A stretch of 64,000 nt of DNA from the sequence record PZ445436.1; one strand, 5' to 3'. The translations under genes were made by a program, and so were the position numbers. How positions within the stretch are numbered: position 1 is the first letter of the stretch; every line of letters starts with the position of its first letter. The DNA is from a phage. This document shows positions 1-3,614 of the stretch, in pieces. Under the pieces are notes generated by a model. It was not told where the DNA came from. It was given only the letters and a program-made list of their open reading frames with translations, and ran no database searches.

Positions 1-365
1 TCTGAGAAGGCACCAGGAAAAAGAGCATTCAAATTAAATTGACGATTCAACAGAGCGTCAATAGAATCACCCAATGCTGTAACAGCTACAAAATTATAAT
101 CTTCTTTTAATTTGTTAATTACACACAGGGCATCTTTATATGGAGACAAGTAACGAATAAAATCTGAACGATTGTATTTTTCAATTAGCTTAACGCCAAG
201 CTCTTCATCGCAATTAAATAGTTTACCTGGAGAGATAAATTTCTCATCTTGGATCATTTTTAAAATATGTTCCAACGGAAGATTATATTTCTGAGCAAAA
301 TAAGGAAGACCTGATTGCCAGCTTAAACATACTCCATCAATATCAGTTAAAATAGTAGGCTTCAT
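1..365 (-). CDS. HAD-like hydrolase-like protein, N-terminal ~121 aa only (gene runs past window start)
   Basis: ATG at 363-365 overlaps stop of the next ORF (ATGA); open frame to position 1; N-terminus MKPTILTDIDGV resembles the HAD DxDx(T/V) motif; absent from ORF track because truncated. Confidence 0.4.
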   Translation of the reverse strand, partial: MKPTILTDIDGVCLSWQSGLPYFAQKYNLPLEHILKMIQDEKFISPGKLFNCDEELGVKLIEKYNRSDFIRYLSPYKDALCVINKLKEDYNFVAVTALGDSIDALLNRQFNLNALFPGAFS

Positions 366-826
366 AGAGAGTCTCTTAATAGGTTTAACACATCAATAAA
401 TTCAGCTTCGGTTAGTATTGTATCATCTTTTGTTAGACCACTAGCCATGCTGTGCTTCAAAACTTTTCCTTTCGAGGCTTGTAATGCATCACGAAAGCCC
501 TTGTTTTGGATCGCTGCTTCAAAATATGCATTTGTGTATAATTCTTTCCACGCCGGGGAGTATCTTGAAAACGGAACTCCAATCCAGAAGAGGGTCCCAC
601 GGTCCTGAGCTCTGGCATAAGACCTTCCAGCTTGTTGGGCGGCAAGCCCGGATAACCCAAATATACGACGTTGTTGTTCAACATTTTTCACCTTACACCC
701 TTGGAGGAATCCTTCAAGACCTCCAAATTGAATACCATCCATAACGAAAGGCCATTGGGCGAAATTACTTAATGCACATGATGGCCACCTAAAATTGCTT
801 CTAATCTCTAACTCAGACATTTTCAA
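362..826 (-). CDS. NADAR/YbiA-like (DUF1768) protein
   Basis: 154 aa; segments LSNFAQWPFVMDGIQFGGLEGFLQGCK and YFEAAIQNKGFRDALQASKGKVLKH align by eye with E. coli YbiA (FSNFAAWPIKVDGKTWPTSEHYFQAQK; KFEQHAELRALLLATAPAKLVEH). Confidence 0.6.
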   Translation of the reverse strand: MKMSELEIRSNFRWPSCALSNFAQWPFVMDGIQFGGLEGFLQGCKVKNVEQQRRIFGLSGLAAQQAGRSYARAQDRGTLFWIGVPFSRYSPAWKELYTNAYFEAAIQNKGFRDALQASKGKVLKHSMASGLTKDDTILTEAEFIDVLNLLRDSL

Positions 827-1019
827 TGCTTATAATTTCAACATCAGCCCAATGACCATAGCAAGGAAGACGAAATTCAACTGGCCAGTTAGGGTCCTTT
901 TCTAATATAATAGACTCAACTCGTGGTTCTTCATGTTCATCAGTATATGGATTTTTATCTGTTACTTTATATGTGACCTTAATGTACTGAATTCCAAAAA
1001 TCTTATTAATTATATTCAT
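813..1019 (-). CDS. hypothetical small protein (T4 30.x-region type)
   Basis: 68-aa ORF, same strand as neighbours, overlapping start/stop arrangement. Confidence 0.5.
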   Translation of the reverse strand: MNIINKIFGIQYIKVTYKVTDKNPYTDEHEEPRVESIILEKDPNWPVEFRLPCYGHWADVEIISIENV

Positions 1020-1213
1020 ACTAATTCCTTTAATCCGTAGATAGGAGATAATTCATCACCCATACGAAGGTCTTCATTTCCATCCACCCAGGAAACAATA
1101 TAAGCCTCTTTTATTTGAACACCACTCCATTTAAATGGAGGTAGAACCTTAGAAATTAATCCAGGTATACCAATTCCCTTTAATTCAACAGTTTGACCTA
1201 AAAAGAATTTCAT
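1016..1213 (-). CDS. hypothetical small protein
   Basis: 65-aa ORF, 4-nt overlap with neighbour. Confidence 0.5.
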   Translation of the reverse strand: MKFFLGQTVELKGIGIPGLISKVLPPFKWSGVQIKEAYIVSWVDGNEDLRMGDELSPIYGLKELV

Positions 1214-1500
1214 TAGAACCTCATCTGAAAACCGTGCGATTTAACATTACCGCCGCCAATATCAGAAATATTAATTTCACGCGCAATTGAAGGGTCAATG
1301 TCAATTTCACGATTGAGTTTAGTGATAGCTAAAGTATCGCGCCCATTTACAGTACGGAACTCTAAAGGACAAACCACATCAACGTAGTTTTTAATCGATT
1401 CACTAGTAGGCTGCAAATGAGCAGGAAGGTCTTTGGGCGCCTTTGAGAAAACCACTTCACAGAAATTTTTACGGGTATCAAAATAAGTAGTCATAAACAT
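1213..1500 (-). CDS. hypothetical protein
   Basis: 95-aa ORF; ATG 1498-1500 preceded by GAGGA SD and an upstream hairpin. Confidence 0.55.
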   Translation of the reverse strand: MFMTTYFDTRKNFCEVVFSKAPKDLPAHLQPTSESIKNYVDVVCPLEFRTVNGRDTLAITKLNREIDIDPSIAREINISDIGGGNVKSHGFQMRF

Positions 1501-1516
1501 GGTATTTTCCTCAGTA

Positions 1517-1532
1517 AGGGGCCGAAGCCCCT
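1517..1532 (-). other. intercistronic CUUCGG-tetraloop hairpin
   Basis: AGGGGC-UUCG-GCCCCU upstream of the SD of ORF 1213..1500. Confidence 0.6.
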
Positions 1533-1541
1533 CATTTTATT

Positions 1542-1907
1542 TTAAATATCAAATTCATTAAGAACTACATCAAAGATTGCTTCGAGATGTTCAGGTTTAG
1601 CTCTGTTACTCAGAATATGACGAATCCAAGTTTTAACCAAAAGCTTGCGATTAGCACCATTCCAGCAAGGATGAGTCCCTAAATCGCGTTGACGAAAATC
1701 ATCATCCAGAGCGATTTTAAAGTTGGAACCTTCCATTGTGATTGAAACCGTGATGCCATTTTCAAATCGCATATAAACGTAATTAGGAGTCATATACTGT
1801 TCAATTTCGCATACTGATCCATTTTGATGTTTCCAAAGGCAAATAGTATCAATAGAACCTGCAATACCATTAGAAACATATTTACGTTCAAAGTTGATGT
1901 AGTTCAT
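1542..1907 (-). CDS. hypothetical protein
   Basis: 121-aa ORF; early-type promoter immediately upstream. Confidence 0.55.
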   Translation of the reverse strand: MNYINFERKYVSNGIAGSIDTICLWKHQNGSVCEIEQYMTPNYVYMRFENGITVSITMEGSNFKIALDDDFRQRDLGTHPCWNGANRKLLVKTWIRHILSNRAKPEHLEAIFDVVLNEFDI

Positions 1908-1944
1908 TTTTGTTCTCCGAGATGTTTAATTGCGGTACAGGTAT

Positions 1945-1973
1945 ATAATATCATATCCTGTACCAAAGTAAAC
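1945..1973 (-). promoter_or_regulatory. T4 early-type promoter (GTTTAC, 17 nt, TATTAT)
   Basis: -35 at 1968-1973, -10 at 1945-1950 on minus strand; flanked by inverted repeat GGTACAGG/CCTGTACC. Confidence 0.6.
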
Positions 1974-1975
1974 AA

Positions 1976-2308
1976 TTATTTTACTACTTTCCAATGCTGC
2001 ATGTCAAGTTTACCAACTTTTTTCATCTTCTCAATTAAGCGTTCGGCACGTTGGCGAGCTGTAACATAATGCCATTCGCCTAATTCATTTTGTTCAATTT
2101 TTCCAACGATTACTGTATTCAATTCATAAATCCAACCAGTAAAGAAATTATGAACTTGAATTGTAAAGGTGAAATCTGTTCCCATACCTTCTGTTGTTTC
2201 TACTTCAATAATATCACCTTCAACTGCCATTAAGAACCACATAGTTTCATCATATTTACCATTGAAGCATTTAGTTTTAACTGCAGCGTTCAGATTAATC
2301 GTTTTCAT
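1976..2308 (-). CDS. hypothetical protein
   Basis: 110-aa ORF; early-type promoter upstream. Confidence 0.55.
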   Translation of the reverse strand: MKTINLNAAVKTKCFNGKYDETMWFLMAVEGDIIEVETTEGMGTDFTFTIQVHNFFTGWIYELNTVIVGKIEQNELGEWHYVTARQRAERLIEKMKKVGKLDMQHWKVVK

Positions 2309-2335
2309 TTTATTCTCCTTTGTTTGTGTAAGATA

Positions 2336-2365
2336 ATACTATCACAAAGGAACCATACTGTAAAC
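2336..2365 (-). promoter_or_regulatory. T4 early-type promoter
   Basis: GTTTAC, 18 nt, TAGTAT with TGA upstream. Confidence 0.5.
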
Positions 2366-2380
2366 AACTTTGTGCAATCT

Positions 2381-2413
2381 TTGGAAAATAAAAAAGGACT
2401 CCCGAAGGAGTCC
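2381..2413 (-). terminator. rho-independent terminator
   Basis: GGACUCC-UUCG-GGAGUCC then UUUUUUAUUUU right after stop of the 30.9-like ORF. Confidence 0.7.
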
Positions 2414-2418
2414 TCAAC

Positions 2419-2595
2419 TTATGCTTTCTGCTTACCAAAACGAGAAGCATCATCTCGAAGAACCGCACGTGCTCGGCGCATGATCTTCTCAACAGTTTGA
2501 TTGATACGAGAGTTCGACCCACGCTTGTAGCCAGCGCGTTTAGAATCACCAACTTTCTTTTCAACTGCTTTCTTTGCTTTAACTTGTTTTGCCAT
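2419..2595 (-). CDS. small basic protein (T4 30.9-like by position)
   Basis: 58 aa from internal ATG 2593-2595 (MAKQVKAKKAVEKK...); terminator hairpin directly after stop; track ORF 2419..2637 has an unsupported 14-aa extension. Confidence 0.45.
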   Translation of the reverse strand: MAKQVKAKKAVEKKVGDSKRAGYKRGSNSRINQTVEKIMRRARAVLRDDASRFGKQKA

Positions 2596-2882
2596 TATAA
2601 ATTCTCTTTTAAATGAAAATGCAGGACTTATTGGCATTGCCTGCGCAAGCCCTCAAGGGGAACATAGGTTTTGAATATTTACCGACAGGATAACCATAAA
2701 CCCGTCATCATACCACCAAGACTTACACAGATAACACTTTTCTGACGCATGATAGTAACATTCAAGAGGTACACCATAAAACTGCCGGGGTCTTAAAACT
2801 ATAATGATTCGCAAATCATTAATCAGACAGTTCGATGGCTCCTCGTTTTAACTTCACACTAAGGCAGTGAATCTCCAATAAA

Positions 2883-3131
2883 TTACTTCAATGTTACCAC
2901 AAAGTGACGAACTGCTTTTCGTGCAGCAGAAGCCAAAGGCTTAGCATATTTAAGTTCATCTTTTTCCTGAAGCTCAGCAGCTAATGCAGTTTGAGCAGGA
3001 TTCAGATGTTTGAAATAACGCAGGATTTCAAGAGCTTCGGCTTCAACATCAATAGATGCGCCATAGTTTTCGTGACCATTATTCCATGCGTTTCGTTGCA
3101 GTTCAAGAGCGTGTTGTAATTGTTTAATCAT
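2883..3131 (-). CDS. rIII: rIII lysis-inhibition accessory protein
   Basis: 82 aa, T4 rIII length and position just downstream of gene 31; late promoter motif upstream. Confidence 0.8.
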   Translation of the reverse strand: MIKQLQHALELQRNAWNNGHENYGASIDVEAEALEILRYFKHLNPAQTALAAELQEKDELKYAKPLASAARKAVRHFVVTLK

Positions 3132-3270
3132 TTAAAAATTCTCGTTAGAGATTAAAACTCGGTAGTCACGTTCTTCTGAATTTCATCTTCTTTCGACAGA
3201 TCTCTCAGTTGTAGACTACCACATAGAATTGTTCGGTTAACTTATTATTCCGACACCCAATTCATATTAT

Positions 3271-3278
3271 TATTTATA
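3271..3278 (-). promoter_or_regulatory. late promoter motif TATAAATA upstream of rIII
   Basis: exact TATAAATA on minus strand in the 31-rIII gap. Confidence 0.55.
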
Positions 3279-3614
3279 TCACTTATAAAGACACGGAATA
3301 GCTTTATAGTGACAAGTAACGAATTTTTGTTTAATTTCTTTTGGCTGCTTAAGACCCAGAGCTACAAAAGGATGCGGAACATTTCGAATTTGACCAACTG
3401 GAAGAGAAGTCAAATCACCAACTTCGCAGAAACCTTCAGGAACATCAGGACCGACAGAGTGAACTACACACAGTTCAGGAACTTCACCTTGAACACGTTT
3501 ACCAATAATAAGTCCTGATTCTGTAACTTCTTCATCACCGGCTTGTGCAGGTTCAGAAACTAAAATAACATATTCACCGACAGCACGAATTGGTAGCTGT
3601 TGTACTTCAGACAT
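3279..3614 (-). CDS. 31: gp31 co-chaperonin (GroES analogue) for capsid protein folding
   Basis: 111 aa, sequence matches T4 gp31 as recalled; MotA-box middle promoter upstream. Confidence 0.9.

Follow-up and report, generated by a model that had tools for sequence, protein, structure and literature searches.

The 64,000-nt stretch of phage DNA analysed here (record PZ445436.1; hereafter the window) opens with two overlapping genes on the minus strand. The initial annotation read the first as a NADAR/YbiA-like enzyme with a possible anti-defence or nucleotide-salvage function and suggested that the second encodes a HAD-type phosphatase partner. We asked what the first gene encodes, which of the proposed functions it serves and whether its neighbour takes part in the same process.

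The window begins with a T4-like gene string

The first 4 kb of the window showed 98% DNA identity to many Tequatrovirus (T4-like) coliphage genomes, and its minus-strand genes follow one another as in T4: 31, rIII, 30.9, 30.8, 30.7, 30.6, 30.5, 30.4, 30.3, 30.2 (Table 1). The ORF that had been reported at 362-826 is present on this strand as gene 30.3, with the TTG at 826 serving as a mechanical ORF start only. The true start is likely the ATG at 820-818, which we favour because it overlaps the 30.4 stop (ATGTCTGA) and agrees with the T4 annotation of 459 nt and 152 aa. This overlap of the 30.4 stop and the 30.3 start suggests that the two genes are co-transcribed and translationally coupled. 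A Pfam search of 30.4 found no family.

Table 1. Features at the start of the window, and HAD-ligase gene pairs in the sampled gene contexts
Feature	Position	Strand	Basis
Gene 30.3 / adfN, 152 aa, NADAR ADP-ribosylglycohydrolase, phage clade (predicted)	362..820	-	T4 identity, PF08010, AlphaFold/Foldseek, catalytic residues
30.3 stop codon	362-364	-	
30.3 catalytic codon E36	713-715	-	
30.3 catalytic codon K43	692-694	-	
30.3 catalytic codon H123	452-454	-	
30.3', 75-aa out-of-frame ORF internal to 30.3	457..684	-	72/75 identical to T4 30.3'
Gene 30.4, 68 aa, upstream of 30.3	813..1019	-	ORF list and sequence; position agrees with T4 30.4 annotation
Gene 30.2, 5' part, HAD-superfamily hydrolase (predicted), cut by window edge	1..365	-	Codons 1-121 at 3-365
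30.2 motif I residue D8	342-344	-	
30.2 motif I residue D10	336-338	-	
30.2 motif II residue T96	78-80	-	
HAD-ligase pair, L009	1922-4591		
HAD-ligase pair, L010	4001-6084		
HAD-ligase pair, L011/L012	4001-6008		
HAD-ligase pair, L013	6005-8045		
HAD-ligase pair, L014	5575-7778		
HAD-ligase pair, L017	5926-7999		

The protein encoded by 30.3 is identical to T4 gp30.3 at 150 of 152 residues. The two substitutions are L80I and I125M, and M125 is the family consensus residue in the homologue alignment. A 100%-identical copy is found in Shigella phage ESh33, and about 1,450-1,500 phage records hold gp30.3, with a host distribution similar to that of gp30.2. Since the ORF is full length, at 152 aa with an intact C-terminal helix predicted at 138-151, a pseudogene or a truncated allele like that of phage RB69 was ruled out.

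Three further observations concern the surrounding sequence. The T4 annotation lists 30.3' as an 'internal translation' product; the conservation of this ORF may be a mere consequence of the overlapping 30.3 frame. Scanning positions 1-3400 for promoters and terminators returned 14 promoter-like sites against 11.3 expected, a yield comparable to that of shuffled sequence. Just after 30.9 (2394-2415, minus strand) there is a strong terminator-like hairpin, GAGGACTCC-TTCG-GGAGTCCTT, with a T-run behind it, and the interval from 30.7 to 30.6 contains the GC-rich palindrome AGGGGCCGAAGCCCCT (1517-1532). Both are possible transcript boundaries or processing sites inside the 30.9-30.2 gene string.

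gp30.3 has the predicted fold and catalytic residues of a phage-clade NADAR

The Pfam search of gp30.3 matched a single family, PF08010 (Phage_30_3), at E=4.3e-70. PF08719, the Pfam NADAR model, gave no match to the window sequence at E<0.1, and a single-sequence search of the PDB returned only a chance match (E=1). We then considered 64 full-length homologues from a large protein database. All 64 matched PF08010, and nine of them also matched PF08719 (best E=1.5e-7). A profile built from the 64 had E. coli YbiA (2b3w) as its best PDB match, at a marginal E=0.0056. Together, the PF08719 matches of these nine relatives and the top rank of YbiA in the profile search indicate that PF08010 and PF08719 describe related clades. 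The profile alignment paired the gp30.3 block ALSNFAQWPFVMDGIQFGGLEGFLQGCK with YbiA residues 29-83 (SNFAAWPIKVDGKTWPTSEHYFQAQKF), the same block that had been picked out by eye in the initial annotation, which was thus real.

Structure prediction agreed. The AlphaFold2 model of gp30.3 (pLDDT 94, pTM 0.89) has the alpha+beta fold of NADAR proteins, with a helical core and small flanking beta-hairpins. Foldseek against the PDB placed YbiA 2b3w at the top (E=3.4e-4, TM 0.67, 18% identity), along with two other NADAR structures, 8bau (Phytophthora nicotianae NADAR) and 8bat (Geobacter lovleyi DarG1 NADAR). Only these three reached a probability of at least 0.89, all remaining matches being at or below 0.05.

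The catalytic residues are kept on proper alignment. The Glu/Lys helix E-x-[FY]-x-Q-x-x-K is present in gp30.3 as E36 and K43, corresponding to the NADAR catalytic pair described as E88/K95 in the E. coli C7 NADAR and as E36/K43 in AdfN (PMC11543638; PMC11825919). Neither E36 nor H123 varies among the 64 homologues, and K43 shows at least 90% conservation. H123 follows the last predicted strand (E120-122), which gives gp30.3 the phage-type His: according to Schuller et al. 2023 and later papers, phage NADARs (gp30.3 proteins) are defined by the His that replaces the last-strand Glu of YbiA and Asp of DarG1/BC4488 (PMC11543638, PMC11125620, PMC12945103).

The predicted fold, the catalytic residues, the family members and the family-profile search thus support membership of gp30.3 in the NADAR superfamily. 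Taken by itself, the missing PF08719 match of the window sequence counts formally against the initial call, which had named the lack of a NADAR match by profile search as grounds for refutation. The sequence does match PF08010, nine of whose 64 members sampled here match PF08719 as well. These relatives, the profile built from the family and the structural model all point to NADAR and overturn that single negative result.

On a 308-kb metagenomic contig (L006, 4001-8468), a gp30.3 homologue of 39% identity lies near NUDIX and Thg1-like genes and other nucleotide- and ADPr-related neighbours. The contigs of this cluster are up to 424 kb long, and the family therefore reaches elements of jumbo-phage size.

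The window gene is very probably adfN

Work on T-even phages provides a function for this gene. By means of phage crosses, the ability of T-even phages to resist DarTG1 was traced to gene 30.3, which was renamed adfN (Johannesman et al., bioRxiv 2024, PMC11257639; Nat Commun 2025;16:1598, PMC11825919). The same reports describe that deleting adfN from T4 or T2 lowers plaquing on DarTG1 hosts by ~4 logs, that ectopic AdfN rescues RB69, whose own allele lacks the last 15 residues and is defective, and that purified AdfN removes ADP-ribose from DarT1-modified DNA. E36A and K43A impair the rescue, the published version giving the loss in vivo as only partial, and AdfN-DarT1 binding was not seen in a two-hybrid assay (PMC11257639, PMC11825919). 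In vitro, T4 gp30.3 hydrolyses guanine-ADP-ribose and not thymine-ADP-ribose (PMC11125620), and it is listed with the enzymes that reverse G-ADPr, not with those that reverse cytidine-ADPr (PMC12945103). In a transposon screen (HIDEN-SEQ), 30.3/adfN was dispensable on K-12 and essential with DarTG1 (bioRxiv 10.1101/2025.11.20.689424). AdfN fails to neutralise DarT1 in uninfected E. coli (PMC11825919, PMC11125620), which the authors ascribe to a preference for the hydroxymethylated DNA of T-even phages (PMC11825919).

We are confident that the window ORF is adfN, encoding an anti-DarT1 DNA ADP-ribosylglycohydrolase made early in infection. It is the same gene as that of T4 (Johannesman et al. 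2025, PMC11825919), at the same site between 30.4 and 30.2; it has E36, K43, H123 and the full C-terminal helix, and differs from T4 AdfN by two conservative substitutions. We infer its activity and phenotype from what has been published on T4 AdfN, to which it is 99% identical, and the anti-DarT idea of the initial annotation matches those experimental findings. During infection, the host DarTG1 toxin-antitoxin system would release DarT1, which would ADP-ribosylate guanine N2 of the phage DNA and so block replication. AdfN would hydrolyse the ribosyl-guanine bond, freeing ADP-ribose and restoring the base, so that the phage could replicate. It would act as a catalyst on DNA, not as a binder of the toxin, probably using Glu36 and Lys43 together with His123, which stands where cellular NADARs have Glu or Asp, and would require the C-terminal helix.

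Two other readings place the enzyme on a different substrate. In the one, the main targets of a NADAR of this kind would be soluble immune signals or toxins derived from ADP-ribose, not DNA adducts. Iyer et al. 2022 proposed such a role for phage NADARs in general, arguing from context (PMC9503650), and the position of the distant homologue in L006, near NUDIX and Thg1 genes, fits it as well. No soluble substrate has been reported, however, and for the 99%-identical T4 protein both hydrolase activity on G-ADPr in DNA and a DarTG1-specific phenotype have been demonstrated, leaving this reading very improbable for the window gene. In the other, gp30.3 would be a metabolic N-glycosidase of the YbiA type, acting on damaged riboflavin intermediates or in nucleotide salvage. 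E. coli YbiA is indeed the best structural and profile match and has the SNF...DG...E..[FL]Q..K block in common with gp30.3. The defining residue of the YbiA family is nevertheless a last-strand Glu, and gp30.3 has the phage-clade His123 instead; YbiA has a role in riboflavin-intermediate N-glycosidase activity and in swarming, and it gives no protection against DarT1 in vivo (PMC11125620). Moreover, 30.3 is non-essential on K-12 and was needed only with DarTG1 in the transposon screen. We rejected the metabolic role on the His123 clade marker and this published phenotype and consider it extremely improbable; the nucleotide-salvage idea of the initial annotation found no support and runs against the same two lines of evidence.

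AdfN as a DNA-directed enzyme also resembles bacterial antitoxins. The NADAR antitoxins associated with DarT1, or DarG1 (BC4488 family; G. lovleyi 8bat, E. coli C7; Schuller et al. 2023), have the fold and the Glu/Lys pair in common with the phage protein, and they and T4 AdfN carry out the same reaction, taking ADP-ribose off guanine N2 in DNA. In contrast to them, the phage protein is a bare core domain without the N-terminal extension (PMC12945103), has His in place of Asp at the last-strand catalytic position (PMC11543638) and is an orphan with no linked toxin, and T4 AdfN does not neutralise DarT1 in uninfected cells (PMC11825919, PMC11125620).

Not every database copy of the gene looks intact. 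Many gp30.3 entries are truncated, at 83-154 aa, and others are chimeras that join PF08010 to PF06919, PF11097, PF06019 or PF26911 (both kinds among P0007, P0013-P0018, P0021, P0048 and P0095). These sequences suggest frameshifts or deletions in some T4-like phages, recalling the defective RB69 allele, and phages that carry them might be DarTG1-sensitive.

The neighbouring gene 30.2 encodes a predicted HAD-type phosphatase

Gene 30.2 starts at the ATG at 365-363, which overlaps the 30.3 stop as ATGA; from there it reads MKPTILTDIDGV... until the window edge cuts it off. All 121 residues in the window match the N-terminal part of T4 gp30.2 (278 aa; 100% identity), and about 1,400-1,500 phage records hold gp30.2. 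In an alignment of 22 homologues D8, D10 and G11 of motif I (TDIDGV) are invariant; T96 of motif II (T/S in all but truncated sequences), K132 of motif III and D152-D153 of motif IV are at least 90% conserved. Of the four motifs, the window includes I and II alone, III and IV being seen in full-length homologues. We modelled P0105, a homologue of 88% identity (pLDDT 95). The model shows a Rossmannoid HAD core with a cap: motif I (DxDx[TV]) closes strand 1, motifs II and IV are at the ends of strands 91-97 and 147-152, K132 precedes helix 133-146, and a helical insertion at about residues 16-90, directly after motif I, forms a C1 cap. The four motifs and their placement in the model therefore confirm the HAD call that had been made from the DIDG motif, at the level of both motif and fold.

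On this model gp30.2 is predicted to be a Mg-dependent phosphatase of the HAD type that carries a C1 cap. HADs with such a cap usually have small phosphoesters as substrates, and the modelled cap would imply a small-molecule phosphoester here too, possibly a nucleotide. The closest known systems are those of HAD subfamily I (C1 cap), i.e. YfnB, L-2-haloacid dehalogenases and 5'(3')-deoxyribonucleotidases, from which the T4-type protein differs by an extra C-terminal tail of ~80 residues and by matching no Pfam or NCBIfam model. The best match of the gp30.2 profile was the 5'(3')-deoxyribonucleotidase 2jao (E=0.045, N-terminal half only), and the DxDGV..W.SGL block resembles NT5C enzymes; hhalign against a phage NT5C protein aligned 23 columns, around motif I only. 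Among the fold matches deoxyribonucleotidases were some of many of equal rank, and the ranking favours no substrate class.

Family databases were of little help with this protein. Pfam returned nothing for the 121-aa fragment, for full-length T4 gp30.2 or for P0105, and the Acj61 orthologue matched PF00702 only below the cutoff (E=0.0057). NCBIfam gave nothing for gp30.2, P0105 or gp30.3, and PHROGs gave only families of unknown function for the two, gp30.2 being PHROG 420, 'unknown function'. The PHROG search also matched gp30.2 weakly (E=0.0033) to a family of polynucleotide kinases, on which we did not rely. No papers came up in a literature search for 'gp30.2'.

In the sampled contexts gp30.2 is linked more tightly to DNA ligase than to gp30.3

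About a dozen gene contexts were sampled. In T4-like phages 30.3 and 30.2 overlap, are co-oriented and are co-transcribed. T4 and three other phages (Klebsiella phage Roth22, Acinetobacter phage Acj61 and Pectobacterium phage POP12) share an arrangement in which 0-2 small ORFs separate 30.3 from 30.2, and in these three 30.2 is followed by ligase. Elsewhere, in three contexts (L009, L010, L011/L012), a gp30.2 homologue directly adjoins DNA ligase and gp30.3 is absent from the surrounding 4 kb, and a gp30.3 homologue occurs with no gp30.2 within 4-5 kb (L003-L008, L015, L018); Aeromonas phage AS-gz, Ralstonia phage RSP15 and two metagenomic lineages are among those with gp30.3 but not gp30.2. 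An obligate linkage was thus ruled out, each gene occurring without the other in more distant relatives. In all contexts examined, even those without a NADAR, the gene for the gp30.2-family HAD adjoins that for an ATP-dependent DNA ligase (gene 30) or lies at most ~700 bp away (Table 1), and the linkage of gp30.2 to ligase is tighter than that to 30.3.

These contexts bear on whether gp30.3 and gp30.2 form a two-enzyme module, in which the NADAR frees ADP-ribose and the HAD phosphatase processes the product or a derivative of it. The ATGA overlap, the order conserved in T4, Roth22, Acj61 and POP12, and the gp30.3 homologue of Vibrio phage QD01, which overlaps a different HAD (NT5C family) in another neighbourhood, would be consistent with such a module. 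The two sets of contexts in which one gene is found without the other argue against it, as does the rescue of RB69 by AdfN alone, though RB69 may carry its own 30.2; nor is 30.2 mentioned among the hits in the text of the DarTG1 transposon screen (bioRxiv 10.1101/2025.11.20.689424). We therefore regard the module as unlikely, and the initial annotation went too far in calling the neighbour a phosphatase partner. Similarly, it is doubtful that gp30.2 is part of ADP-ribose counter-defence, or of a DNA or nucleotide metabolism linked to DNA ligase; if it were, it could, for example, dispose of an ADP-ribose-derived product released by AdfN.

Two of the contexts held features of their own. In QD01 (L016, 5007-5961) the gp30.3-family NADAR overlaps a HAD of the NT5C family (PF06941, E=4.7e-12), which bears the annotation 5'(3')-deoxyribonucleotidase, and the pair lies beside genes 47/46, far from any ligase. 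This is apparently a second, independent NADAR-plus-HAD adjacency, and it hints at a functional link. In Roth22 (L013, 1859-1972) the stretch from gene 31 to the 30.3 homologue includes an ORF that the depositors annotated as 'anti-CBASS protein acb2', next to two tRNA genes. In T4-like phages, the interval from 31 to 30 may be a hotspot of counter-defence genes.

Implications for T4-like phages

The feature at the start of the window is AdfN, which is already known, and the current understanding of it is unchanged. AdfN is an example of an antitoxin-type enzyme taken over by phages to remove a DNA lesion that the host has made. The window carries an intact, near-identical copy of adfN, and this phage is therefore predicted to resist DarTG1, a prediction that would be useful for host range and for the choice of therapy phages.
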